Shown here: positions 1-21,923 of the stretch, in pieces
Position numbering within the stretch: the first letter of the stretch is position 1
How the letters are laid out: every line of letters starts with the position of its first letter
Source of the DNA: Omnitrophica WOR_2 bacterium RIFCSPHIGHO2_02_FULL_50_17
Lineage (GTDB): Bacteria; Omnitrophota; Gorgyraeia; Zapsychrales; Zapsychraceae
Assembly (NCBI GenBank): GCA_001805645.1
Contig: MHGQ01000049.1
Span: 66,216 to 130,215, forward strand
Direction of reading: 5' to 3'
DNA: 64,000 bases
Translations under genes and position numbers: made by a program
The notes under the pieces: model-generated
What the model saw: the letters and a program-made list of their open reading frames with translations, nothing else
Told to the model about the DNA's origin: nothing
Databases searched by the model: none

Positions 1-679
1 CGCGAAATACCATGTCATACATGAGCCTTAATTCCTTTTTCTTGTTGGGGATATTCTGAATCTGGTGTTTGGCAACTTCCGAGGCTGTCCTTGAAAAACC
101 CGTAAAATACAACAAGAGGTGATCCTGCAGACGGCGCAGCCTCTCCTCGGGGATCGTCACCATTCTTACCTGAAGATGGTTCTTCCCGCCGAACTCAATC
201 AGATTAAATCCGCCGTAAGCCGCCAGGGTCTGGTCTTGACAGCCCACATTATCGAGGCACTTTTCCTGCTCGACAAAAATGGCCTCCCTGGCCAGCCGCT
301 CCTTGGTGGGCATAACCCCTTTGAGCGCATAGAGGGCGTTTAAGAGCCCCACCGTAAACGAGGAGCTTGAGCCAAGACCTGTCCTGGCGGGGAGATCCCC
401 GTCATGATGGATTTCCACCCCCTGCCTGATCCTCAAAAACTTCAAGACCTCCCGCACCGCCGGATGGTCAATCTCGCTTACCTTTTTGACATGCTCCATC
501 TTGGAATAAATAATCCTGGATTTGTGGTCAAAAAAGGGCGGCAGATACCGGCAGCTGATATAGCAATATTTGTTAATAGTCGTGGCTAGAACCGCCCCCT
601 GATGCCCTTCAAACCATCCGGGATAATCGGTCCCCCCGCCGAAGAAAGAAACACGAAAAGGTGTGCGGCTTATAATCAT
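1..679 (-). CDS. GHMP-family sugar kinase (heptose-7-phosphate kinase / fucokinase-like), partial; the 3' end lies beyond the window start
   Basis: I translated the minus strand from the ATG at 679-677: MIISRTPFRVSFFGGGTDYPGWFEGHQGAVLATTINKYCY...PARTGLGSSSSFTVGLLNALY. This carries the GHMP kinase ATP-binding motif P-x-G-x-G-L-G-S-S. There is no stop within the window, so the ORF track does not list it. Its ATG overlaps the stop of the upstream radical SAM gene (ATGA). Confidence 0.7.
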   Translation of the reverse strand, partial: MIISRTPFRVSFFGGGTDYPGWFEGHQGAVLATTINKYCYISCRYLPPFFDHKSRIIYSKMEHVKKVSEIDHPAVREVLKFLRIRQGVEIHHDGDLPARTGLGSSSSFTVGLLNALYALKGVMPTKERLAREAIFVEQEKCLDNVGCQDQTLAAYGGFNLIEFGGKNHLQVRMVTIPEERLRRLQDHLLLYFTGFSRTASEVAKHQIQNIPNKKKELRLMYDMVFR

Positions 680-2187
680 AAGACAGAGGCCTCCTCCAAA
701 ATTTTACGCTTGAGTTGAATTTGGGTAGACCTCAATGTTTCATCAACAGCTGTCTGCCCGAATTTTTGTTTCAATAAATTCAAAAATTGCGGATGCGTAT
801 GATACGTCATCCACGCCTTATCCCGGAAGGCCAAGACCTGATCGGCGGTTAAGTACCTCGTCGGCAAAGGCTGCGTATAATAGGAATGCTGAGAATATCC
901 GGCATAACAATCCGGAAGCCTCCAGCCCTTTTTCTTCGCCTCGCCGTAAAGGGGGCTCCCCGGATAGGCCATGGCTGAATAAAAATTGACCTCCTCGGTA
1001 TTCAATTCCAGAGCCAGATCGAGAGTCATCTGCATCGTTGCCATCGTATCCTCGGGAAGGCCGAAGATATAATTGGCAATCACACAAATATCATGGTCCC
1101 GAATCTTTTTAACGACAGCCCTGATATCCACGTCTTCAAAACGCCCCTTCGTGACGTCTTGGCGCACCTTGGTATTTCCGCTCTCAATGCCTAAAGCAAG
1201 CCACTTGACGCCCGCCCTTTTAAGCGTCTCAAGAAAATGCTCCTTGACTGTATCCACGCGGGAATAGCACCAGATGTTAAAATTAAACCCTCGCTCAATA
1301 ATCAATTCACACAACCGCATAAAATGATTCGTATTTAAGACAAACAACTCGTCGGCAATCTTAATGTTTTTGATTCCCTTCTTGGCAAACCCATCGAACT
1401 CTTCGATAATAAAATCAGGATCCCAATAACGAAATATAGCGCTGCCGTCGGCGTATTCGTTTTCCTGACGGTTAATAATGTTGATCATACAGAAAGAGCA
1501 CCGCATCGGACACCCCAAACTGGTATAAAGCGCGGCAAAGGGCTGCCTCTGGCAATTATTGGGATACGAATGCCACAAAGAGGTCCGGTACCTCTCTAAG
1601 GGAAGTTTATCCCACGCCACCCCGGGCAGTTCCTGCGGTAAATCCCACCTAGACACGATGGGAGACGGCTTGTTTAAAATAATCTCCCCGTCCTGACGAT
1701 ACCCCAAACCGTCCACCTGCTCAAGCTTGTCCTCTAAATTGGTTCTTAAGAGGTTGGAGATGGTGTAAACCCCCTCGTTCTGGCAAACCATATCCACGCA
1801 AGGGTGTTTCTCCAAAACTTCCCGCGGCAGGGCCGCCACATGCCCACCGACGAATAATGTCTTCCCTTGAGGCCATACCTCTTTGAGGGTCCCTGCTAAC
1901 GCAACCGCCCCATCCATATTCTGGGAGCTCGCCGACGGCTGCTGGCCGTAGACCACAAAACACGCCGCCCTCGGATTTAATTCTTGTATCCTGTAAGCCG
2001 CCTCTTGGTCGCTGAGACGCAAAGCCGCGCAATCCAGGATTTCCGCGCTGAAACCTTTATGCAGGCAGTGGGAGGCCAGCATTCCGGCCCATATCGGCGG
2101 CTCAACGGCAGAAAAATCTTTACTGAGATCCTGATAATTCTTCTTTGCGGAATCAGAATGGATAAAAAGAATGTCTAATTGGCTCAT
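676..2187 (-). CDS. B12 (cobalamin)-binding radical SAM protein
   Basis: The N-terminal cobalamin-binding-like domain reads ILFIHSD...PPIWAGMLASHC. The radical SAM cysteine triad CPMRCSFC fits CxxxCxxC. Length is 503 aa. Confidence 0.8.
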   Translation of the reverse strand: MSQLDILFIHSDSAKKNYQDLSKDFSAVEPPIWAGMLASHCLHKGFSAEILDCAALRLSDQEAAYRIQELNPRAACFVVYGQQPSASSQNMDGAVALAGTLKEVWPQGKTLFVGGHVAALPREVLEKHPCVDMVCQNEGVYTISNLLRTNLEDKLEQVDGLGYRQDGEIILNKPSPIVSRWDLPQELPGVAWDKLPLERYRTSLWHSYPNNCQRQPFAALYTSLGCPMRCSFCMINIINRQENEYADGSAIFRYWDPDFIIEEFDGFAKKGIKNIKIADELFVLNTNHFMRLCELIIERGFNFNIWCYSRVDTVKEHFLETLKRAGVKWLALGIESGNTKVRQDVTKGRFEDVDIRAVVKKIRDHDICVIANYIFGLPEDTMATMQMTLDLALELNTEEVNFYSAMAYPGSPLYGEAKKKGWRLPDCYAGYSQHSYYTQPLPTRYLTADQVLAFRDKAWMTYHTHPQFLNLLKQKFGQTAVDETLRSTQIQLKRKILEEASVL

Positions 2188-2191
2188 GGCA

Positions 2192-3148
2192 TCAAACGTT
2201 CGTCAAGTGACTGGACATGGATCGGTTCGCGTTAATAACGGTAAACCCTTTAATTAATTCCTGGATACCCGCGGAAAGAGATACTTGCGGATGGAACCCC
2301 GTCTTTTCGATTTTTTCATTGCTGACAATATAATCCCTCTTATCGGGGTCTTTCCCCGTTTTGGATTCCGTAAATTTAAAATCGGGGACGTGTTTTTTGA
2401 TCGCCTCGCACAGTTCCAGTTTGCTCAAATTGGCGTCGCTTAGGCCGACATTGTACGCCTGATCCTTAACCTTGTCGAAATTCTTGAGCATATGCAAAAA
2501 GGCGTGCGCGACATCCCGGACATGGATAAAGTTACGCTTAAAATGGGGCTCAAAGAGTTCGACGTAACCTTCCTTCACGGCCCGGAAGGTAAAGTCATTC
2601 ACCAGAAGATCGAGGCGCATCCGCGGGGATATGCCAAAGGCCGTGGCGAGGCGCAGCGTCACGCCGTTTCCAGCGCTCAAGACTGCTTCTTCAGTATGGA
2701 CTTTCAACCGGCCATATAAAGAAATCGGTCTCAAAGGCGTTTCCTCCGTGCAGAATTTTCCCTTTTCCCCTACACCGTAACCGCTGTTCGTCGTCGGGTA
2801 AATGATCATCTGGCTTTTGCTGCGCAGTTTTAAGATCAGTTTCAACGCGTCCAAAATGATTTCCTGCGCCTCTTGCGGCTTCTTGTCACACAAAGGCGCC
2901 CCGGTCAAACACGCCAATGGGAAAATGGCGTCAGATTTCCTGATGAGTTCACCCATCAATTTTTCATCGCGCGCGTCGCCACGGATGATGGTCAGCCCCG
3001 GATAATGACAGCAATCCAAAAGCGAGGTCTGGCCGTACATAAAATTATCCACGACTGTGACCTGATGCCCCGCCGCCAAAAGCTGCGGGACCATAACCGA
3101 ACCGAGATATCCTGCCCCGCCTGTGACTAATATATTCATAGCACACAC
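2192..3148 (-). CDS. NAD-dependent epimerase/dehydratase (extended SDR) family protein
   Basis: Rossmann motif NILVTGGAGYLGS and catalytic YGRLK (YxxxK). The likely true start is MNILV, a few codons inside the track ORF. Confidence 0.75.
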   Translation of the reverse strand: MCAMNILVTGGAGYLGSVMVPQLLAAGHQVTVVDNFMYGQTSLLDCCHYPGLTIIRGDARDEKLMGELIRKSDAIFPLACLTGAPLCDKKPQEAQEIILDALKLILKLRSKSQMIIYPTTNSGYGVGEKGKFCTEETPLRPISLYGRLKVHTEEAVLSAGNGVTLRLATAFGISPRMRLDLLVNDFTFRAVKEGYVELFEPHFKRNFIHVRDVAHAFLHMLKNFDKVKDQAYNVGLSDANLSKLELCEAIKKHVPDFKFTESKTGKDPDKRDYIVSNEKIEKTGFHPQVSLSAGIQELIKGFTVINANRSMSSHLTNV

Positions 3149-3153
3149 TCCCT

Positions 3154-4143
3154 CTAATCCTTTATCCCTTTGATCCTTTCCTCCTCTAATCCTTTATCTC
3201 TATTTTTATGCCACTCATACGTCCTGCGGATCCCCTCTTCCAGGGATACCTTCGACTGCCACCCCAACTGCCTGATATCGCTGTTGTCCAACAGTTTCTG
3301 CAGAGTCCCGTCGGGCTTGGACTCATCAAAGACAACCTCTCCCTGGAAACCTGAGACCCGTTGAATCATCTGCGCTAACTCTTGAATAGTTAAATCGCTC
3401 CCGTAACCCATATGAATCACCTTCTCTCCCTCGTAGCGATCCATCAAAAGATGGCACCCTTGCGCAAAGTCATCCGTATAGAGAAATTCCCGTCTGGGCC
3501 GGCCCGTGCCCCAGACGACAACCTGCTTTTGATTATTCTTAACCGCCTCGCAAAATTTATAGATTAAAGCGCCCATCACATGCGCCGTTTCCAAGCAAAC
3601 ATCGCTTCCAGGGCCGAAAAGGGTCGGAGGAATAGCGACAATGGCATTAAGCCCGTATTGCCTGCGGTAGGCCTGGCAGAGTTTAATGCCGGCGATCTTG
3701 GCAACGGCATACGGTTCGCTTGTTTTTTCCAGGTCCCCTGTCAGCAGGTATTCCTCTCGAATAGGCTGAGGACAGTTTTTGGGATAAACACAGGAACTCG
3801 CCAAAAAGAGCAGCTTTTTCACGCCAAATTTATGCGCCGCATAGATAACATTGTTCTGGCTCTCCAGATTATGATAAATAAACTCCCCCGCCTGCCTTTG
3901 ATTGGCCTCAATGCCGCCGGAGCGCGTCGAGGCCAGAAACACATATTCCGGCCGGTATTTAGAGAAACATTCGTAAACGGACGGCTGTATCGTTGTGTTG
4001 AGGGCTATCGCCGACGAAGAAACAACATTTTTGAAACCATAGGATTGAAAATGCCCCGTTAACGTCTGCTCGAGGATGTCGTTATGTCCGACAATGAGAA
4101 TTTTCGCATTTTTATCCATAACGTAAATCGCGTAGGGGCGCAT
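3154..4143 (-). CDS. fcl: GDP-L-fucose synthase-like (Fcl/WcaG family) 3,5-epimerase/4-reductase
   Basis: KILIVGHNDIL..., LLFLASSCVYPK and AIPPTLFGP are typical Fcl motifs. The probable start is MDKNAKIL. Confidence 0.7.
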   Translation of the reverse strand: MRPYAIYVMDKNAKILIVGHNDILEQTLTGHFQSYGFKNVVSSSAIALNTTIQPSVYECFSKYRPEYVFLASTRSGGIEANQRQAGEFIYHNLESQNNVIYAAHKFGVKKLLFLASSCVYPKNCPQPIREEYLLTGDLEKTSEPYAVAKIAGIKLCQAYRRQYGLNAIVAIPPTLFGPGSDVCLETAHVMGALIYKFCEAVKNNQKQVVVWGTGRPRREFLYTDDFAQGCHLLMDRYEGEKVIHMGYGSDLTIQELAQMIQRVSGFQGEVVFDESKPDGTLQKLLDNSDIRQLGWQSKVSLEEGIRRTYEWHKNRDKGLEEERIKGIKD

Positions 4144-4160
4144 TGCTCCGACATTCGCTC

Positions 4161-4206
4161 TGCTCAGTCGGAGTCCCGACCGACGAAGTCGGAGTGTCGG
4201 GACAAT
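4161..4206. repeat. REP-like cluster of overlapping inverted repeats built on GTCGGAGTCCCGAC / GTCGGGAC
   Basis: Arms gtcccgac (4173-4180) and gtcgggac (4196-4203), plus gtcgg/ccgac pairs. It lies in the 74-bp gap between the transketolase-C stop and the fcl start. The same motif in reverse orientation recurs at 21881-21902. Confidence 0.5.
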
Positions 4207-4217
4207 ACGCCCCTACA

Positions 4218-4754
4218 TTATTTTTCGTTATACAAATTCCCATGTTCAATCAGAAGGGTGGCCCTGGCCTCTTCGCGTTCCAGGGCATGTTTGTACGCCG
4301 GGAAGATTTCATCCGGCTCATTGAGTTCAACGACCTCAATCCAGGAAAACATGCGCCGGAAAGCCTCGGCGTAATTGCCTACGTGCTGATGCCCGGGATG
4401 GACAGGCGCATCCGGCCCTGAGGCCGCGCGGATAATGACCTTAGGCAGAACTCGGTTGGAACTGATGGCCGGCATTTTATCCAGCATATTCACCATATCC
4501 GCCGTTGCCAATAAAAGAAAATTCTGCCGAGGGTACACAGATATGGGGATATATCCCGCCAGGGCCAGGCCTAAGGTAAACTGCATCTGAAAGCTTTCGT
4601 TGACAGGCATCTCAACTCTTTTATCGGGGGAGACGTCCTGAAGGGTGGAATACATAAATGTCCCAGGCCCTGCTACGGTCTGGCCGATAAAAATCGTTTT
4701 AGGGTGCTGGGCAACCCATTCCATCGTTCGTTTAATTTCGTCAAAGTATCGCAT
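4218..4754 (-). CDS. Transketolase-like C-terminal subunit (split ThDP enzyme)
   Basis: 178 aa with pyrimidine-binding / C-terminal-half transketolase-like sequence (FIGQTVAGPG..., LLLATADMV). It is adjacent to the N-terminal-subunit gene, as in sugar-cluster split transketolases. Confidence 0.6.
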   Translation of the reverse strand: MRYFDEIKRTMEWVAQHPKTIFIGQTVAGPGTFMYSTLQDVSPDKRVEMPVNESFQMQFTLGLALAGYIPISVYPRQNFLLLATADMVNMLDKMPAISSNRVLPKVIIRAASGPDAPVHPGHQHVGNYAEAFRRMFSWIEVVELNEPDEIFPAYKHALEREEARATLLIEHGNLYNEK

Positions 4755-4775
4755 CGTTTAAGACCATGGTCCCCA

Positions 4776-5408
4776 TCAAAATTTAATTTTCCACCCCAGC
4801 CCCGAGTGAGGATAATTGTTCTTATACCGGAAATAAATAATCTTCTTCTCATATTTTGTCCCGAGAAACCACGGTTCCGGGGAGCCCCAGACCTTCCGCG
4901 TCTCGGTCATCACGCTCAATCCGTTATCGCAGACCACAAACACGACCGGCAGGTCGAAAGAAACGGCGTATTTGACCGCCTCGTGAAAAATTCCGGTCTC
5001 AGAAGACATATCTCCGCAGAAGATATAAACCCGGCCCCTTTGGTTCTGCCTTTGGAGCGCCCAGGCCACACCCACGGCGGTCCCCATGAGACTCCCGACG
5101 ATGCCGGTGCAGAAAATCTTGTATTCCGGAAAACATAAGGAGATACTCTTTCCATCCAAGATAGCCTGCTTGACCTCTTCCCGGGGCACACCCTTGAGAA
5201 GCGCCAGCTCGTGGGAATCCCAATGCCCAAAGACATAATCTTCAGAGGCGATACTGTTGTCTTTGAAGATTTGGATCAGTTGCTCCTCCCTGCCGGAGCG
5301 CAAGTGCACCGGAGCTTTGATGACTCCCGTCGCATAAATCTCAGCGATTTCCTTCTCAAAATCGCAGAGATCTTCTTTAGTTATCTCGCGATATTTTGTT
5401 TGAACCAT
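4776..5408 (-). CDS. Transketolase-like N-terminal (ThDP-binding) subunit
   Basis: HLRSGREEQ..., GHWDSHE... and the GDMSSETG ThDP-binding GDG-like motif. Confidence 0.65.
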
Positions 5409-6334
5409 CGGATCGTTTCCTGAAGGCCATCCTCTAATTTAACCTGCGGGGACCATTTCAAATATTTCTTGGCAAAGGTGATATCGGGCCTGCGCTGCTT
5501 CGGGTCATCCACCGGTAGCGGCTTAAAAATAATCTTGCTCTTTGCATGGGAGACATCCATAACCAGCCTGGCGAATTCCAGAATCGTGAATTCATCCGGG
5601 TTGCCTATATTAACCGGCATCGTGACATTCGACCTCAAAAGACGAATAATTCCCTCGATAAGATCGGAGTAATAACAAAACGACCTGGTCTGCGCACCGC
5701 GGCCATAGACCGTCAGGGGCTTATTGTGAATAGCCTGATAGATAAAATTCGGCACGACCCGGCCGTCCTGGATGCGCATCCGCGGGCCATAGGTGTTAAA
5801 GATGCGCACAATCCGCGTATCAATTTTATGATAGCGGTGATACGCCATGGTGATGGCCTCAGCAAACCGTTTGGCCTCATCATAAACACCCCGCGGCCCA
5901 ATGGGATTCACGTGCCCCCAATAGGATTCCTTCTGGGGATGCTCTTCGGGGTCCCCGTAGACCTCAGAGGTCGAGGCCAACAGATACCTCGCCTTCTTCA
6001 GCTTGGCCAGACCGAGCGTAATGTGACTCCCCAGCGCCCCCACTTTAAGGGTAGGGATAGGATAATTCAGATAATCCACAGGGCTTGCCGGAGAGGCAAA
6101 ATGAAGGACATAATGCACATGCCCTCCCAGACGAAATTCTTTGGAGATATCGTGCTTAATAAACTCAAAATTTTTATCCTTCCAGAGATGCCGGACATTA
6201 TCCAAGTTTCCTGTAATGAGGTTATCCACGCAAAAGACCTTTAAGCCATCCTGGATAAACCGGTCACAGAGGTGGCTTCCCAAAAAGCCGGCCCCGCCGG
6301 TGATGACAATTCTTTTCTTCTTATCGGACAACAC
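5381..6334 (-). CDS. uxs: UDP-glucuronate decarboxylase (UDP-xylose synthase)
   Basis: [15 protein letters not shown] and [13 protein letters not shown]...DGRVVPNFI...[14 protein letters not shown] are UXS signatures. Confidence 0.8.
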
Positions 6335-6350
6335 CCTCTCCTTCTATGCG

Positions 6351-7652
6351 TTAGAACTTAACAACCTTGTTGCTCCTTACGCCTGCGTAGACATTGCGGA
6401 TATCATAAATCAGACGACCATGCTTTAATATGTCTTTATAATCAACCCGAGTATGGTCTGTGGCAATAATGATGCAATCGTAACGGGACAATAGAGTCTC
6501 CGACAGCTTAATAGAGCTCAAGCGAATTCCCCCGATATCCAAATAAGGGATAATGGGGTCATAATACTCCACCCGGGCGCCCTTGCCTTGCAGGATTTCA
6601 ATCAGTTTAAGCGGAGGCGATTTGCGCAGGTCCTTGACGTCTTTTTTATAGGTAACCCCTACGATTAACAGCCTTGCCCCTGAAAGGCGTTTTTTCTTTT
6701 TCCCCAGAATACCGGCCAGACAATCCGCAACGTAACGAGGCATATTGGAATTGATATCCGCTGAGAGTTTAATAAATTTCGAGCTAAAGCCGTGATGCTT
6801 CGCCTTCCAATAAAGATAGAGCGGATCATCCGGAATACAGTGCCCCCCCACCCCAAGACCGGGATAAAACGGCATAAAACCAAACGGCTTGGTCTTGGCG
6901 GCCTCGATGATTTCCCAGACGTCAATCCCTAATTTGTGGCACATCATGGCCACCTCATTAACCCAGCCGATGTTGATGATCCGAAACGTGTTCTCGAGAA
7001 GTTTCGTCATCTCCGCGGCCCTGGCCGAAGAAACCAGATGCACCTGCCGGATAATCTTCTGATACAATAATTGGGTCAACTCCCCGCTTGCCGCCGAAAG
7101 TCCACCGACAATCTTAGGAATTCGCGTCACGTCATACTTGGGATTGCCGGGGTCAATCCGTTCCGGAGAAAAGGCCAGAAAGAAATCCTTCTCGGCCTTA
7201 AGACCGCTTTTCTCCAACTCGGGCTTGATCAGCTCTTCGGTCGTGCCGGGATAAGTGGTGCTTTCCAAGACAATCAGCATATTTTTCTTTAAAAATCGGC
7301 GGATCGTCCTGACGGCACTGACGATATAGGTAATATCGGGCGTATACTTGCGCTTAAGAGGCGTTGGGACACAAATGATAATAACATCCGCCGTTTTTAA
7401 CACCTCAAATTCCGTCTCCGCCCGTAAACGGCCGTTGCCAACCACCTCGGCCAGTTCTTTACTTGGGATATCCAGGATATAGCTGACCTTCTTATTGACA
7501 TTGGCGACACGGTCGGTATCTTTGTCGAGGCCGAAGACCTGAAATCCCTTCTTGGCAAAATTGACCGCCAAAGGAAGCCCCACATACCCCAATCCGATAA
7601 CGGCAATTCTGGCCTTGCCGGCCGCAATCTTTCTATTAAGGAAATTTGTCAT
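6351..7652 (-). CDS. Nucleotide-sugar dehydrogenase (UDP-ManNAc / UDP-GlcNAc 6-dehydrogenase WecC/TviB family)
   Basis: N-terminal IAVIGLGYVGLPLAVNFA Rossmann fold and UDP-glucose/GDP-mannose dehydrogenase family architecture. Length is 433 aa. Confidence 0.75.
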   Translation of the reverse strand: MTNFLNRKIAAGKARIAVIGLGYVGLPLAVNFAKKGFQVFGLDKDTDRVANVNKKVSYILDIPSKELAEVVGNGRLRAETEFEVLKTADVIIICVPTPLKRKYTPDITYIVSAVRTIRRFLKKNMLIVLESTTYPGTTEELIKPELEKSGLKAEKDFFLAFSPERIDPGNPKYDVTRIPKIVGGLSAASGELTQLLYQKIIRQVHLVSSARAAEMTKLLENTFRIINIGWVNEVAMMCHKLGIDVWEIIEAAKTKPFGFMPFYPGLGVGGHCIPDDPLYLYWKAKHHGFSSKFIKLSADINSNMPRYVADCLAGILGKKKKRLSGARLLIVGVTYKKDVKDLRKSPPLKLIEILQGKGARVEYYDPIIPYLDIGGIRLSSIKLSETLLSRYDCIIIATDHTRVDYKDILKHGRLIYDIRNVYAGVRSNKVVKF

Positions 7653-7676
7653 TTCTCAATCCTCGATTCTCAATTT

Positions 7677-9005
7677 TTACTTTCGGATGTTGCCGCGCCC
7701 TATCCCATAATACTCGAACCCAAGCTCTTCGAGGCTGCGGTCATGATAAACGTTGCGGCCGTCAAAAAGGATTGGGTGCCGCATCAAACGCTTTATCTTC
7801 TTAAAATCCAATTTCTTAAATTCCTCCCATTCGGTCAAGACCAAAAGACAGTCGCATCCCTTAGCCAAGAGATACGGATTGGGACAATAGGTCACTTTCT
7901 TTAATATCTTTCTGGCATAGGGGACGGCCTGGGGGTCATAGGCCTTGATTCTGGCCCCTTCATGTTGAAGGGCATGGATAATATCAACGGCGGGGGCATT
8001 GCGCATATCGTCGGTGTTGGGTTTAAAGGCCAATCCCAAAACCCCCAGCGTCTTATCCTTCACAATCCACAATTTATCTTCAATAAGACGGACAAAAAGA
8101 TTCTTCTGCTCTTCATTAACCTGCCGCACCTCTTTCAGGAGATTAAAATGATAACCGCTCTTTTCACTGAGACGGATAAACGCATCCACATCTTTCGGGA
8201 AACAGCTCCCCCCGTAGCCGATGCCCGCATCGAGAAACCGGCGTCCGATGCGCTTGTCTAGGCCCATGCCGTCGGCGACTTTTAAAACATCGGCCCCCAC
8301 ATGATCGCAAATCTGGGCGATGGCGTTAATAAAAGAAATCTTGGCCGCCAGGAATGAATTGGAGGCGTGTTTAATCAATTCGGCGGAATGGATGTCTGTT
8401 ACCACTATATGGGGCTTAAGAGGTTCGTATATCTCCCGCAGGAGATTCTCGGCCTTCTTGGACTCTACCCCGATAACGACACGGTCCGGGTGCATAAAAT
8501 CATCAACCGCCGATCCCTCCCGCAGAAATTCCGGATTGGAGGCCACGTCAAAATCGAGCGTCACTTCACTCCCTCTCTTAAATCTCCCCGGCAGATTCAT
8601 GGTGATCGTGCGTTTAATACGCTGCCCAGTCTCCGCCGGCACCGTGGACTTTTCAACAATCAACTTGTAAGAATCCATGGCCAGCGCAATCTGGCGAGAG
8701 ACATTTTCTACATATGTCAAATCAGCCTCCCCGTTTTTCTTGGAAGGCGTCCCGACGGCGATAAAAATGACTGTTGACTTTTTTGTTGCCTCCTGGATGG
8801 AAGCGGAAAACGCCAGGTATCTGGTTTTAAGATACTTCTTGAGTAAATCCTCCAAATCAGGTTCATAAAAAGGCACTTTCCCCTGCTTTAATTTCTTGAT
8901 CTTTTCTCGGTTGTTGTCCACACAGATAACCCTGTGTCCCAAGTGCGCCAGGCACACCCCTGTCACCAGCCCCACATACCCCGATCCGATAACAGCGATA
9001 TTCAC
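7677..9005 (-). CDS. ugd: UDP-glucose 6-dehydrogenase
   Basis: MNIAVIGSGYVGLVTGVCLAHLGH, GGSCFPKD catalytic-Cys motif, 442 aa. Confidence 0.85.
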   Translation of the reverse strand: MNIAVIGSGYVGLVTGVCLAHLGHRVICVDNNREKIKKLKQGKVPFYEPDLEDLLKKYLKTRYLAFSASIQEATKKSTVIFIAVGTPSKKNGEADLTYVENVSRQIALAMDSYKLIVEKSTVPAETGQRIKRTITMNLPGRFKRGSEVTLDFDVASNPEFLREGSAVDDFMHPDRVVIGVESKKAENLLREIYEPLKPHIVVTDIHSAELIKHASNSFLAAKISFINAIAQICDHVGADVLKVADGMGLDKRIGRRFLDAGIGYGGSCFPKDVDAFIRLSEKSGYHFNLLKEVRQVNEEQKNLFVRLIEDKLWIVKDKTLGVLGLAFKPNTDDMRNAPAVDIIHALQHEGARIKAYDPQAVPYARKILKKVTYCPNPYLLAKGCDCLLVLTEWEEFKKLDFKKIKRLMRHPILFDGRNVYHDRSLEELGFEYYGIGRGNIRK

Positions 9006-9007
9006 GT

Positions 9008-11164
9008 TTAATTCCCTTCTGAGCTTTGAGAACCAGCCTTGCGTTTATTAAAACTTGTCCCAAAATCCAACATCATGTCGGGGAAGGCCTTCAGCGTAAA
9101 GACAATCCAGATCTCACTGCCCTCTCTTCTCGTTTCATTGAAATTGATATCCATGGTCCAATCATGCAGATCGCGCGTTACGGTGTATTGCTGCTCTTTA
9201 TGAATACCATTCTTTAAATCAAAACGGTTATACATTTTTACAGCCCATTTAGGATTGAACTTCCATGCCCAGTCCGTCGTGATTTGATCGTCCACCTCCC
9301 GGTTCCATCTCTTGCCGATATTGGCAGACCACTTCTTGCCGCCGTTAATAAAGAGATCGAAATTGGCAGTAGTCAGATAGTCTTTTCGCGTATCATAGAT
9401 TGAATCAAAATAGAACGTGACCCAGTCCTTCGGACGGAAATCAATATCTGTCGTGATCTGATCAAAACCGCCGGTGGTGGGGTGCTCTTTAAGCCGGAAA
9501 TCGGTGCCGATGACGGCGCGCAGCAATTCCACCACATTGCCTTCTCTTTTTGTCTGCAGTTTATTCTCGAAGGAAAAATTGATGGTATGGCTTAAATCTT
9601 TACTGTCAATGCCGTCAAAGGAATCTAATTGATCCGAGGGAAGGGTGGGGCCGTGATCGTAGGTGTAGGAAACCGCCGGGGTAATAATATGCCTGAGGCG
9701 GTGGACATCCAAGCCCCATTTCTCGACTTCCATATCAAAGACCCTGTAAAACTTCGTGCTGAGACTCGCCCCCGTGCGGAATATCCCGCGGATGGAATTG
9801 TATTCATCCGGATCCTTGGTTTTGCTGTAATAGGTATGCTCCCCGCCGACAAAAGGCCTCATCTCGATGAATCCGATTTTCAACGGATAGGACAGCTCAT
9901 TATCCGCATCCAGCCGCATGGTCTCGAAACGAACCTCGCTGGGAGAGGCGTCCTTTTTCGTCAAATTGGAATAGGTCGTGACATTCTTAAAATACAATCC
10001 CGTCTCGCCTATCGGCTGGCTCGAGAGGTCATAGCGCACCTCCGGCAGGCGCTCCACCGCCGACTCAAAGCGGTTCACACGGGCGTCGGTACGGAAATTA
10101 AACGTCCCCGCCGGCAAGACATGCGTCAAAAGGAAAAAGGTGTCCGGCGATGAGTCTTTGTCAAATTCCCGGTTAAAGTAATCCTTCAGAAGCGTTGAAT
10201 CGCTTAATTTATAATACTGCCAAATAGCGTTTGTCTTCTCGTCGATATCCCATTTGTGGCGCCATTCCACCTTAAACCGTTCCCGTTCAATCGTAGGGCT
10301 GGGACGTTCCTGATAGAAATGCTTGGAGGTAATACTGCGCTCGTTCATATAATAAGTCTTAATGACGCCTTCTCCCGCGGCAGGTGTCTGGTAGCGCGTA
10401 TCCCAGCCCCAGGCGATATCCTTCTTTTCCCTGGCATCCAAATGAAAAGTGCCTTTCACCTGCTCATTGAATTGATACCGCCACGCGCTCAGCAAAAACA
10501 TCCCCCACTGCTTGTCATAACCGGGCGTTAAAGTCACAATCGGCCTTTTACCGGTCAAATCCTGGGTAAAACGCGGGATATAAAGAACGGGCACTTTGCC
10601 TATTTTCATGCGGACATGGCGGGCAATCAATTTATCATTCGGATAAACATCCATCTTGCGGGAGACCAGACGGAAATGAGGACGGTCATGGTCGCATGTG
10701 GTCAGATAGCCGTTTTGCATAATGATATGGTTTTCGGAAACCTTAGAGACCTTTTCGCCCTCTCCATAATAAGGATTGGCAACAATCCCGGCCGGCTCAA
10801 AATCGCCGTTCATCGTCTCGAAATTAAAGGCCATCTTCTCGCCGTTTATTTCATCCACGCCTTTTTTCAGATGGACGTTGCCTTCGGCATAAGCCGTGCT
10901 GGTCCCGCGGGAGAATTCGACCCGGTCACAGGTCAAAATTACGTCCTTATAAAGGATAACCACATTGCCGCTGGCCGTGATTTTATTGCCGTCCACCGAA
11001 TATTCGACGACATCGCCGTTTAATTCGACAGAAGCACCCGGTGCGGATTTTGCCTCATCCGTCCCCTCATCCGCAAAGCCGACAAGGCACGCGCCCCCCA
11101 CCAGCGCCAGTATCAAGAGCGAAAAAAAGGCGGCTTTAACCATAGCCCATTTAGCGTCTAACAA
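9008..11164 (-). CDS. lptD: LPS-assembly outer membrane protein LptD (OstA family)
   Basis: Signal peptide, an OstA-like N-terminal domain (GNVVILYKDVILTCDRVEF...GNVHL) and a large beta-barrel region. Length is 718 aa. Confidence 0.75.
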   Translation of the reverse strand: MLDAKWAMVKAAFFSLLILALVGGACLVGFADEGTDEAKSAPGASVELNGDVVEYSVDGNKITASGNVVILYKDVILTCDRVEFSRGTSTAYAEGNVHLKKGVDEINGEKMAFNFETMNGDFEPAGIVANPYYGEGEKVSKVSENHIIMQNGYLTTCDHDRPHFRLVSRKMDVYPNDKLIARHVRMKIGKVPVLYIPRFTQDLTGKRPIVTLTPGYDKQWGMFLLSAWRYQFNEQVKGTFHLDAREKKDIAWGWDTRYQTPAAGEGVIKTYYMNERSITSKHFYQERPSPTIERERFKVEWRHKWDIDEKTNAIWQYYKLSDSTLLKDYFNREFDKDSSPDTFFLLTHVLPAGTFNFRTDARVNRFESAVERLPEVRYDLSSQPIGETGLYFKNVTTYSNLTKKDASPSEVRFETMRLDADNELSYPLKIGFIEMRPFVGGEHTYYSKTKDPDEYNSIRGIFRTGASLSTKFYRVFDMEVEKWGLDVHRLRHIITPAVSYTYDHGPTLPSDQLDSFDGIDSKDLSHTINFSFENKLQTKREGNVVELLRAVIGTDFRLKEHPTTGGFDQITTDIDFRPKDWVTFYFDSIYDTRKDYLTTANFDLFINGGKKWSANIGKRWNREVDDQITTDWAWKFNPKWAVKMYNRFDLKNGIHKEQQYTVTRDLHDWTMDINFNETRREGSEIWIVFTLKAFPDMMLDFGTSFNKRKAGSQSSEGN

Positions 11165-19887: not shown

Positions 19888-21828
19888 TTATTTTTTATCT
19901 TTATTGTCGTCTTCCGCTTCGAAATCGGCGTCGATAATATCTTCATTAGAGGCACCCTGGGGACCCTCCTGCTGGGCATGATGTCCATGTGTCTTGTGCT
20001 GCCCCCCCTCAGGACCGCCCCCGCCTTTTGCTCCGGCTGTCTGCTGCGCCGCTGTGGCCTTGTAAACCTCTTCGGCCAATTTATGACTTGCCTTCTGAAG
20101 CGAGTCCATGGCCCCTTTGATCTTTCCCTCATCGCCGGATTTAATCGCTTCTTTCAGATTATTCAGCTCTCTTTCGATATTGGACTTGTCGTCAGCCGAG
20201 ATCTTATCTCCGTAATCGCGGATGGATTTCTCGGTCGCATAAACAATCACATTGGCCTGATTGACCAATTCGACCTTCTCTTTACGCTTCTTATCCTGAT
20301 CGGCATATTGCTCGGCCTCTTTGACCATCTTCTGGATCTCTGCATCCGAGAGCTTGGTCGGGGCGGTAATACGAATCGACTGTTCTTTCCCTGTCCCCTT
20401 GTCCTTTGCTGCAACATGAACGATGCCGTCCGTATCGATATTGAAGGTAACCTCGATTTGCGGGATACCGCGCGGGGCCGGCGGAATCCCCACCAGGTCA
20501 AAACGCCCCAGCTCGACGTTATCATCTGCCATGGGGCGCTCCCCCTGAAGGACGCGGATAGTCACCGCGGGCTGATTATCATCGGCCGTCGAGAAGACCT
20601 GACTCTTGCGCGTAGGAATGGTTGTGTTGCGCTCAATGAGTTTTGTAAAGACGCCCCCCAAGGTCTCGATCCCCAGAGTCAACGGTGTCACGTCCAAAAG
20701 AAGGACTTCTTTGGCCTCTCCCCGGATAATCCCGCTCTGAATGGCCGCCCCCAGGGCCACACATTCCATAGGGTCTATCCCGCCTTCAATTTTACGGCCA
20801 ATCTCTTTCTCGACAAAGGCCTGAACACAAGGCATACGCGTGGGGCCGCCCACGAGAATGACGCGGTCAACCTTGACATCTTCGCCCATCTTAGCCGAGG
20901 CGTCTTTAACGGCCTGACGAATGGGGCCGTGGCAACGGTCAATAAGAGGAGACACCAGGCTTTCCAGCTTGGCGCGATTGATAGTAAGGGTCAGATGTTT
21001 GGGGCCGTTGGAGTCCGCCGTAATAAACGGAAGATTGATATCTGTCGAGACAGTGCTGGAAAGCTCCACCTTCGCCTTCTCCGCGGCCTCGCGCAGGCGC
21101 TGAAAGGCCATTTTATCTTTCTTGAGATCAATCCCCGCGTCCTTCTTAAACTCCTCACAAATGTGATTGATCAAAATGTTATCCATATCCGTTCCGCCGA
21201 GCTCATTGTCTCCGCTGGTGGATATGACCTCAAAGGTGGCGGCCTTGTGTCCCTCATCCCATCCCATCTCAAGGATCGTCACATCGAGGGTCCCGCCGCC
21301 AAAATCAAAAACCATGATCTTCTGTTCCTTGCCGGCCTTGTCCAGTCCATACGCCAGACACGCCGCGGTCGGCTCATTGATGATCCGAAGCACCTTCAAG
21401 CCCGCAATCTCGCCGGCATCTTTGGTGGCCTGCCTTTGATTGTCATTAAAATAAGCGGGGACTGTGATCACGGCTTCTTCGACGGGTTCGCCAAGATATT
21501 TCTCGGCATCCGCCTTGATCTTCTGAAGGATGAAGGAGCTGATCTGCTGCGGGGTGAATTCCTTGCCGCCGACATGATATTTGTGGTCCGTCCCCATCTT
21601 CCTCTTGGCGGCATAGATCGTTCCTTCGGAATTCATCGGTGCCTGACGGCGGGCCGGCTCTCCCACCAATCGTTGCCCGTCTTTGGTGAATGCCACAAAA
21701 GAAGGGAATGCCTTGCCAGAGGAAACCCCAGCCCCTTCCGCCGAAGGGATAATCGTCGGACGCCCCCCCTCCATGACCGCCGCCGCGGAATTGGATGTTC
21801 CCAAATCAATGCCTATTGCTTTTGCCAT
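19888..21828 (-). CDS. dnaK: Molecular chaperone DnaK (Hsp70)
   Basis: [18 protein letters not shown] and other Hsp70 signatures. 646 aa with an acidic C-terminus. Confidence 0.95.
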
Positions 21829-21923
21829 TTTGTCCTCCTTGCTTCATGTCATAGGTCACTCCCGACGCGCCATCTTTGATGTCGGTCGGGACTCCGACCG
21901 AGGCTTGAGCCGAGCGTCGGAGA

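Follow-up and report, generated by a model that had tools for sequence, protein, structure and literature searches.

Which sugar is made by the nine genes that lead into lptD on an Omnitrophota contig, and do all nine take part in making it? The locus occupies the start of a 64,000-nucleotide stretch of Omnitrophica WOR_2 bacterium RIFCSPHIGHO2_02_FULL_50_17 (contig MHGQ01000049.1, positions 66,216 to 130,215; this whole stretch is hereafter called the window). It codes for a B12-binding-domain radical S-adenosylmethionine enzyme (hereafter called rSAM), a two-subunit thiamine diphosphate (ThDP) enzyme and a series of nucleotide-sugar enzymes. Our analyses indicate that the genes belong to two modules. 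One is a cassette common to at least eight phyla, with SAR11, Azospirillum and Solidesulfovibrio among its carriers. We consider it fairly probable, from sequence and gene context, that this cassette makes GDP-D-glycero-D-manno-heptose, which it tailors into a 3-deoxy, C4-branched cell-surface sugar, most probably of the lipopolysaccharide (LPS). The other is a separate UDP-sugar module that accompanies the cassette in Omnitrophota.

Gene content and distribution of the cassette

Nine co-oriented open reading frames (ORFs) are present in the first ~9 kb of the window, with strong family matches throughout in Pfam and NCBIfam. Together with lptD, which heads the same gene string, they are as follows.

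1-679, minus strand: GHMP kinase, N-terminal 226 of 332 residues; Pfam GHMP_kinases_N 8e-14; best NCBIfam family HddA; the gene crosses the start of the window
676-2187, minus strand: rSAM, 503 residues; Radical_SAM 2e-16; B12-binding (PF02310) 1.8e-10, 41 bits for a cutoff of 32; CPMRCSFC motif
2192-3148, minus strand: short-chain dehydrogenase/reductase (SDR), predicted Cj1427 type; PDB 6VO6 match; translation probably begins at the ATG at 3139 (315 residues)
3154-4143, minus strand: Fcl-like protein, derived from GDP-fucose synthase (GMER); NCBIfam GDPFucSynFcl 1.6e-107
4218-4754, minus strand: ThDP PYR-domain subunit, 178 residues; Pfam Transket_pyr 24.1 bits, below the cutoff of 27; best PDB matches E1-beta chains
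4776-5408, minus strand: ThDP PP-domain subunit, 210 residues; Pfam E1_dh 3e-12, 46.6 bits for a cutoff of 22
5381-6334, minus strand: UXS-like (UDP-glucuronate decarboxylase-like) SDR; Pfam GDP_Man_Dehyd and Epimerase; ASTSEVYG motif
6351-7652, minus strand: nucleotide-sugar 6-dehydrogenase of the WecC/TviB type; NCBIfam NDP-sugDHase 444 bits; below cutoff in NCBIfam for both UDP-ManNAc dehydrogenase and TviB
7677-9005, minus strand: Ugd, UDP-glucose 6-dehydrogenase; NCBIfam TuaD 544 bits, 2.7e-163; all three UDPG_MGDP_dh domains
9008-11164, minus strand: LptD, outer-membrane LPS assembly protein; Pfam LptD 6.9e-11; NCBIfam LptD

These coordinates and family matches bear out the description, in an earlier sequence-only reading of the window, of nine consecutive minus-strand genes running into lptD. 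The spacing is operon-like, with gaps or overlaps of at most 28 nucleotides and a single exception of 74, and the stop codon of the rSAM gene overlaps the start codon of the kinase gene in the sequence ATGA.

We searched for rSAM relatives in one genome per species using a 10-sequence alignment, a 39-sequence alignment being too diverse, and collected 590 of them. The best 80 of these 590 relatives include members of Omnitrophota, Verrucomicrobiota, Planctomycetota, Nitrospira, Pelagibacteraceae, Methylopumilus, other Betaproteobacteria, Methylobacter, a spirochaete, Bdellovibrionales and Anaerolineae. At 50% identity (E<=1e-30), the family falls into 713 clusters, with thousands of variants among marine, soil and groundwater sequences. 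The window protein has its closest homologues (74-85% identity) in entries annotated as Candidatus Omnitrophota or Omnitrophica.

The proteins of the window were then mapped onto all rSAM-anchored loci, and the composition of the cassette was read from those that extend 6 kb or more to either side. All 18 Omnitrophota-type loci harbour the kinase, the nucleotidyltransferase (see below), the Cj1427-like SDR, a DegT-family protein with a His residue in place of the catalytic Lys, and the small ThDP pair of the window (hereafter called the mini pair). Among the 17 loci from other phyla, a two-subunit ThDP enzyme of any type is found in all, the kinase, the SDR and the His-type DegT protein in 16 each, and the nucleotidyltransferase in 12. 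Conversely, anchoring the analysis on the beta subunit of the mini pair in metagenomes (21 loci extending 7 kb or more to either side) retrieved the SDR and a DegT-family gene in 21/21 cases, the kinase in 20/21 and rSAM in 19/21. As the gene order is shuffled between phyla, this linkage is functional rather than inherited synteny. Orthologues of rSAM and of the ThDP subunits were also checked for contexts unrelated to sugars, which the sequence-only reading had named as the finding that would speak against it; across phyla, these genes are always found amid sugar-nucleotide genes in orthologous contexts.

A few carriers are cultured. Plasmid pDMC1 of Solidesulfovibrio magneticus RS-1 harbours a full cassette, with genes for a PMT-like GT-C protein and for LhgO alongside. 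Other cultured carriers include Azospirillum halopraeferens, Magnetospirillum moscoviense and A. lipoferum 4B, the latter with a minimal Fcl-rSAM-kinase-NUDIX set, and the cassette is also found in the metagenome-assembled genome (MAG) of an uncultured Ferrovibrio. A plasmid search returned Azospirillum and Solidesulfovibrio, and using one rSAM protein each from Burkholderiaceae and Azospirillum as queries yielded environmental and alphaproteobacterial relatives only. Full-text searches of the literature that combined radical SAM enzymes, heptose, HddA/HddC, thiamine, GHMP kinases and Omnitrophota yielded no description of the cassette. The gene combination, the minimal ThDP enzyme, the rSAM family and the breadth of distribution are apparently new, while each of the chemical ideas has a precedent.

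We extended the locus past position 1 of the window by way of contigs encoding an identical rSAM protein, and found that the cassette runs ~9 kb further. The extension harbours, in this order, the remainder of the kinase gene (332 residues in total, full length in contigs L001 and L004) and genes for an 851-residue membrane protein, a 264-residue DUF3108-like protein, an HddC-like nucleotidyltransferase, a DegT-family protein, a family 4 glycosyltransferase (GT4), a GT2-like protein and ManC. In sister Omnitrophota genomes, the gene order is the same minus the membrane protein and DUF3108-like genes, and GT9 heptosyltransferase genes follow. Glycan-assembly genes, which the sequence-only reading had proposed to look for upstream of position 1, are therefore present on that side of the locus. 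The order lptD-ugd-dehydrogenase-UXS-cassette is kept across Omnitrophota. Ugd, the WecC-like dehydrogenase and the UXS-like protein accompany the cassette only in this phylum and are absent from the cassettes of all other phyla, and they constitute the separate UDP-sugar module.

The two-gene insert lies between the kinase and nucleotidyltransferase genes (3985-7355 of L004, an NCBI MAG contig). The 851-residue polytopic membrane protein has no Pfam or NCBIfam match and an iterative search revealed no relatives in ~95 other loci, from which the DUF3108-like protein is also absent; we therefore rejected it as a member of the cassette and regard it as part of a strain-specific insert. It could be a GT-C-like transferase, with nothing yet in support. 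L004 is 99.9% identical to the window from rSAM onward, drops to 88% inside the SDR gene (L004 484-1138 for window 2485-3139) and terminates within the Fcl-like gene, as would be expected if strains are mixed in a mosaic or the assembly is chimeric. A groundwater metagenome contig is 99.97% identical to the window.

Other insertions were found in Omnitrophota cassettes. In some of them, genes for a carbamoyltransferase, an SxtJ-like protein and a DUF5989 protein stand just ahead of the ThDP pair (L008 4300-6825; L012 5118-7707), suggesting O-carbamoylation of the glycan. In another locus, a nucleotidyltransferase/HepT-like toxin-antitoxin pair separates the ThDP beta gene from the Fcl-like gene (L010 7329-8001).

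On the other side of the locus, lptD is followed by a ROK-family gene and then by genes for GGDEF proteins, accD, dnaJ, dnaK and grpE; these housekeeping genes place the locus in the core chromosome. A 633-residue antisense ORF (19978-21879, plus strand) covers nearly all of dnaK (19888-21828, minus strand) and is probably non-coding. Our scan for promoters and terminators returned nothing beyond consensus-level matches, most of them intragenic.

A predicted route from GDP-heptose to a 3-deoxy, C4-branched sugar

In the pathway that we propose, the HddA-like kinase and the HddC-like nucleotidyltransferase would convert a heptose phosphate into GDP-heptose. The best PDB matches of the kinase are the heptokinases 4usk, 3k85 and 4n3o. 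Together with HddA as its best NCBIfam family, they favour the second of the two functions initially considered for this protein, sugar-1-kinase or heptose kinase, and we predict it to be a heptose-7-phosphate 1-kinase of the HddA/WcbL type. Similarly, the best matches of the nucleotidyltransferase are 6jq8 and 5xhw, described as '6-deoxy-D-mannoheptose pathway' proteins, in the PDB, and HddC in NCBIfam. GmhA-like SIS genes are found within or adjoining the cassette in five other lineages (L059, L072, L080, L082 and L096). Genes for NUDIX, RmlC-like and ManC proteins are also present in several cassettes, with an RmlC-like epimerase in the SAR11 versions. Such neighbours are typical of GDP-heptose or other GDP-sugar chemistry, and GDP-D-glycero-D-manno-heptose is the most likely substrate of the tailoring enzymes given these matches.

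The next enzyme, initially described as an SDR epimerase/dehydratase, is indeed an SDR, though not a generic one. It is a close homologue of PDB 6VO6 (2.9e-116, 391 bits, ~60% identity over 309 residues), its active-site stretch PTTNSGYG, aligned with PNTNSGYG in 6VO6, lacks the acid pair of 4,6-dehydratases, and its YGRLK sequence corresponds to the YxxxK motif. We predict that it is an NAD-dependent GDP-heptose C4-dehydrogenase of the Cj1427 type, which would oxidize C4, its bound NAD being recycled with alpha-ketoglutarate in ping-pong fashion. Dehydrogenases of this type make 2-hydroxyglutarate from alpha-ketoglutarate. Close downstream of the S. magneticus RS-1 pDMC1 cassette, with three genes between, is found lhgO, coding for L-2-hydroxyglutarate oxidase (L094 25453 onward); its presence is consistent with alpha-ketoglutarate/2-hydroxyglutarate cycling in the style of Cj1427.

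The DegT protein is closest to GDP-perosamine synthase and ColD. In the cassette protein, a His residue is aligned with the catalytic Schiff-base residue Lys186 (FSLYAAHIVTT for FSFFGNKIITT in GDP-perosamine synthase). This substitution is present in all cassette copies checked, namely by alignment in 26 loci of the genome scan and by motif search in three alphaproteobacterial loci, and second, non-cassette DegT copies retain the Lys. It is the signature of 3-dehydratases dependent on pyridoxamine 5'-phosphate. The protein harbours four scattered Cys residues only, without the [2Fe-2S] Cys motif of the E1 subtype, and no E3-like gene is found in the cassette, which argues for a ColD-like rather than an E1-like enzyme. 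It would thus strip the C3 hydroxyl to generate GDP-3-deoxy-4-keto-heptose. In Campylobacter jejuni, Cj1427 is a GDP-heptose C4-dehydrogenase that uses alpha-ketoglutarate, and with the C3-dehydratase of the HS:5 serotype it converts GDP-heptose into GDP-3-deoxy-4-keto-heptose in vitro (m/z 616.08; PMC10680097).

For the Fcl-like protein, initially called a GDP-fucose-synthase-like enzyme, the family assignment holds. Alignment with E. coli GMER shows that Ser107/Cys109, Tyr136/Lys140 and His179 are retained, in the sequences SSCVYP, YAVAK and AHV. The NADPH motif is degenerate, with GHRGMVG of E. coli GMER replaced by GHNDILE, so that GxxGxxG is gone. The change from GHxGxxG to GH(N/D)D(I/V)xE is found in essentially all Omnitrophota orthologues (L008-L065), that of L049 being differently degenerate, and the orthologues of other phyla have a canonical motif. 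Because of this loss and of its score below the family cutoff, we do not assign the protein as a fucose synthase or a reductase. In Omnitrophota, it has probably lost reductase activity and would act only as a C5 (C3/C5) epimerase.

The ThDP pair was labelled a split transketolase in the sequence-only reading, but it is not one. No match to Transketolase_N or Transketolase_C was found by Pfam in the two subunits of the window. Their best matches are to the alpha and beta subunits of 2-oxoacid dehydrogenase E1; in the PDB, the PP subunit matches E1-alpha chains and the N subunit of one split transketolase. The subunits are of 210 and 178 residues for ~320 and ~330-350 in full-length alpha and beta subunits, the latter with Transketolase_C; the C-terminal domain common to E1-beta and transketolase is missing. 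Cofactor-binding features are nevertheless present: the ThDP/Mg motif G132-(D/E)-M...D161-N162, or G(D/E)M-x26-DN, is conserved in 50 orthologues of the PP subunit, and the cofactor-activating Glu53 of the PYR subunit in at least 95% of 51 orthologues. On these grounds, we describe the pair as a minimal E1-type heterodimer.

Four types of enzymes occupy the ThDP slot of the cassette: the mini pair, classical E1 alpha/beta pairs (~320-333 and ~350 residues; L064, L080, L094, L096 and L097), an intermediate pair (~285 and ~310 residues), and true split transketolases, as in L082 (Transketolase_N on one subunit, Transket_pyr and Transketolase_C on the other). The last of these types is seen in Methylobacter, a spirochaete and further loci. 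That non-orthologous enzymes fill the same slot argues for a generic role as donor of a two-carbon (C2) carbanion. We propose that the mini heterodimer adds a C2 acyl group, probably from pyruvate, to the C4 ketone, yielding a branch on a tertiary alcohol, as in the biosynthesis of yersiniose and aldgarose. YerE-type ThDP enzymes add acyl branches to 3-deoxy-4-keto nucleotide sugars in LPS sugars (PMC9306805), and E1-type two-subunit enzymes of the alpha-KADH2 group install pyruvate-derived C2 branches on the keto-sugars of actinomycete products (PMC12247030). With C4 branched in this way, no C4 reductase would be needed, in keeping with the decay of the NADPH site in the Fcl-like protein of Omnitrophota. 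The neighbouring GT4, GT2 and GT9 enzymes would install the finished sugar, and Ugd, the WecC-like dehydrogenase and the UXS-like protein would supply other UDP-sugars to the same glycan. The idea of an unusual deoxy or branched, LPS-linked nucleotide sugar formed by C2 transfer onto a keto-sugar thus survives from the sequence-only reading in this proposal; the assignment of all nine genes to it does not.

Several points weigh against this pathway. The scores of the kinase with HddA (149 bits for a cutoff of 600), of the nucleotidyltransferase with HddC (154 for 300) and of the Fcl-like protein with GDPFucSynFcl (359 for 500) are far under the equivalog cutoffs, and the identity of the substrate therefore rests on best matches and context. 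No gmhA (SIS) or gmhB genes were found within the 64-kb window. We take 6VO6 to be Cj1427 of C. jejuni, with which the deposited molecule name is consistent. For the mini ThDP enzyme, we infer both acceptor and donor, and the functional assignment of every member of the cassette is a prediction from sequence and context.

The radical SAM step and alternative explanations

In the rSAM protein, the motif C226xxxC230xxC233 is nearly invariant. The nearest named NCBIfam families are HpnJ (150 bits, cutoff 577.6) and BchE (122, cutoff 481), the AprD4 model scores 84 (cutoff 500), and the best PDB match by sequence is AprD4 (6fd2, 60 bits), at 18-19% identity. We generated an AlphaFold2 model (pLDDT 94), for which the best Foldseek match is also AprD4 (E 1e-24, TM-scores 0.72/0.79), followed by TsrM, MgmA, TokK, CysS and OxsB, with E values of ~1e-20 for class B methylases.

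Natural variants inform on the place of this enzyme in the pathway. In the cassettes of two metagenome contigs (L121 and L144), the ThDP pair is present and both rSAM and the Fcl-like gene are missing, and in M. moscoviense (L095) and A. lipoferum rSAM is found without a nearby ThDP pair. The rSAM and ThDP steps are therefore separable, and a stand-alone tailoring step without an obligatory partner is best fitted by C-methylation. We tentatively prefer such a step, predicted to depend on cobalamin, on an unactivated carbon of the heptose skeleton, e.g. C6 or C7. GenK is known to methylate an unactivated sugar carbon. The same variants also count against an integrated pathway, as some cassettes dispense with one or the other enzyme. 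Further evidence unfavourable to methylation is that neither HpnJ nor BchE is a methylase, and that AprD4, the best structural match, is a diol dehydratase that is not known to use cobalamin. No cobalamin or other riboswitch was found around the cassettes in a riboswitch search. An argument against cobalamin dependence based on SAR11 not using B12 was dropped, since SAR11 is regarded as a B12 auxotroph with btuB (PMC9296465). We also considered C7 methylation by rSAM to form an 8-deoxy-octose of the erwiniose type, and rejected it, since YerE-like enzymes, with long keto acids as donors and a 3,6-dideoxyhexose as acceptor, account for erwiniose and caryophyllose (PMC9306805).

Some rSAM homologues (P0123, P0126 and P0136) harbour inteins, with Hint/Intein_splicing domains at ~227/228, i.e. 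within the CxxxCxxC motif, and a second intein site of the family, with a LAGLIDADG endonuclease, lies near residue 340. On plasmid p6 of A. lipoferum 4B, a gene set next to those of rSAM and the kinase (L093 2586-9748) resembles that of O-methyl-phosphoramidate biosynthesis in C. jejuni. It codes for a phosphoenolpyruvate (PEP)-utilizing enzyme, a gamma-glutamyl hydrolase, a phosphocholine-cytidylyltransferase-family protein, an adenosine phosphosulfate kinase-like protein and a methyltransferase. A gene for a PEP-utilizing enzyme also follows rSAM in a verrucomicrobial locus (L077 11463-14030).

Alternatively, rSAM might be an AprD4-like radical 1,2-diol dehydratase working without cobalamin, which would for instance convert the C6-C7 glycol into a keto-deoxy or aldehyde group, with the rest of the pathway unchanged. 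We regard this as unlikely, although it has several points in its favour. AprD4 is the best match by both sequence and fold and its substrate is also a sugar. The Fcl-like gene often adjoins that of rSAM, the Fcl-rSAM-kinase-NUDIX set of A. lipoferum recalls the AprD4/AprD3 pair, and the two rSAM-less loci both lack the Fcl-like gene as well. Nevertheless, the identity to AprD4 is low and the NCBIfam score far from its cutoff. Several Omnitrophota cassettes (L012, L016, L041 and L046) have rSAM without the Fcl-like gene, and where this gene is present in Omnitrophota, the absence of the NADPH motif leaves such a dehydratase without a reductase partner.

Caryose, which is produced by Burkholderia (Trinickia) caryophylli, offers another possible end product. 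It is a 4,8-cyclo-3,9-dideoxy-nonose, and rSAM could be a radical cyclase that abstracts a hydrogen at C7 and forms a C-C bond with the carbonyl of the acetyl group added by the ThDP enzyme, yielding a carbocyclic C9 sugar of this type with a fused cyclopentane ring. The skeletons match, as caryose corresponds to C1-C7 of a heptose plus C2, with a 3-deoxy position, a methyl at the terminus and two tertiary alcohols (C4 and C8). In addition, the Fcl-like protein could carry out the C5 epimerization that its D-ido pattern would require, HpnJ and BchE form or contract rings, and Omnitrophota lack a ketoreductase for the acetyl branch. The biosynthesis of caryose was described as unknown in a 2022 review (PMC9092360). 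The proposal is one of retro-biosynthetic reasoning, and the retention of rSAM by M. moscoviense and A. lipoferum without a nearby ThDP pair argues against it; we consider such a cyclase improbable.

Just as doubtful is a role of the ThDP pair other than sugar branching, in which it would decarboxylate a 2-oxo acid for a substituent or cleave a ketol, leaving a 3-deoxy-heptose derivative without a branch as the final product. Divergence of the mini subunits is strong, as illustrated by the Transket_pyr score, their acceptor is assigned by interpretation, and cassettes devoid of a ThDP pair exist. Arguing for a C4 branch instead are the strict co-occurrence (21/21) of the mini pair with both enzymes predicted to make the 3-deoxy-4-keto acceptor, the lack of a functional C4 reductase in Omnitrophota and the documented branching of such acceptors by YerE-type and E1-type enzymes.

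Finally, it is most improbable that the nine genes together encode one pathway, with a split transketolase moving glycolaldehyde onto a UDP- or GDP-keto-sugar from Ugd and UXS: the genes are contiguous and co-oriented, and genuine split transketolases do serve as the ThDP enzyme of some cassettes (Methylobacter, a spirochaete and further loci), but the UDP-sugar genes are restricted to Omnitrophota cassettes, the subunits of the window are nearer E1 alpha/beta, and the best relatives of the tailoring enzymes are GDP-sugar enzymes.

Significance and comparison with known systems

If the proposed pathway is correct, the product of this one cassette is a C-branched 3-deoxy sugar derived from heptose, perhaps also methylated or cyclized. 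The cassette occurs in at least eight phyla, and its carriers include groups abundant in the environment, namely SAR11, Methylopumilus, Nitrospira, Verrucomicrobiota and Omnitrophota. ThDP-dependent sugar branching would then extend beyond enterobacterial O-antigens and actinomycete antibiotics to the primary envelope glycans of uncultured bacteria. The mini pair would be the smallest E1-type ThDP carboligase so far (~390 residues for both subunits), of interest for tertiary-alcohol biocatalysis, and rSAM would represent a new and large family of radical SAM enzymes with nucleotide sugars as substrates. Should the product be of the caryose type, the cassette would provide the missing route to such carbocyclic sugars, which would then be common in the cell envelopes of Omnitrophota, Verrucomicrobiota, Nitrospira, SAR11 and further groups. 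The cultured carriers and the natural variants devoid of rSAM or the ThDP pair make the proposal directly testable, and they provide ready comparisons for sugar analysis.

The closest known systems are the capsular GDP-heptose pathways of C. jejuni (HddA/HddC, Cj1427, the PLP-dependent C3-dehydratase of HS:5, and Cj1430/Cj1428 as epimerase and reductase), with which the cassette shares the same types of kinase and guanylyltransferase, a homologous SDR, a His-type DegT protein and an Fcl-family protein. As described (PMC10680097), these pathways comprise neither a ThDP nor a radical SAM enzyme, whereas the cassette has both, and the Fcl-like protein has lost its NADPH motif in Omnitrophota. GDP-3-deoxy-4-keto-D-glycero-heptose, which in the case of C. 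jejuni corresponds to an engineered in vitro mixture only (PMC10680097), would be a natural branch point in the cassette pathway.

The logic of transferring a ThDP-bound acyl carbanion to C4 to form a tertiary alcohol is shared with the pathways to yersiniose, erwiniose and caryophyllose, in which YerE and YerF act on CDP-3,6-dideoxy-4-keto-glucose. However, YerE is a single-chain enzyme of the decarboxylase superfamily, whereas the cassette enzyme has two subunits and belongs to the E1/transketolase superfamily. The yersiniose-type pathways involve CDP, a 6-deoxyhexose and an E1/E3-type deoxygenation, in contrast with the probable use of GDP, a heptose and a ColD-type enzyme by the cassette, plus the rSAM step. 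The alpha-KADH2 enzymes of the aldgamycin, kosinostatin, kibdelomycin (KbDH-alpha/beta), avilamycin and paulomycin pathways are two-subunit E1-type enzymes like the cassette pair. In the latter, the alpha subunit is only about two thirds (210 residues) and the beta subunit about half (178 residues) of the normal size, the C-terminal domain being absent from beta. The alpha-KADH2 enzymes belong to actinomycete secondary metabolism, unlike the cassette, whose setting is a primary envelope glycan in Gram-negative bacteria and uncultured phyla.

As for rSAM, the AprD4/AprD3 system of apramycin C3' deoxygenation shares with it a sugar substrate and an N-terminal B12-like domain of AprD4, but there is no equivalog-level match and Omnitrophota have no intact reductase partner. 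HpnJ, which mediates ring contraction in the hopanoid cyclitol ether, and BchE are the top-scoring named families, but the context of the cassette is devoid of hopanoid or chlorophyll genes. The class B methyltransferases, including GenK and GenD1 and those of the TokK, TsrM and CysS structures, have the same core architecture of B12-binding and radical SAM domains as rSAM, which differs from them by its shorter length (503 residues), the lack of a family-level sequence match and a use of cobalamin that is so far a prediction.

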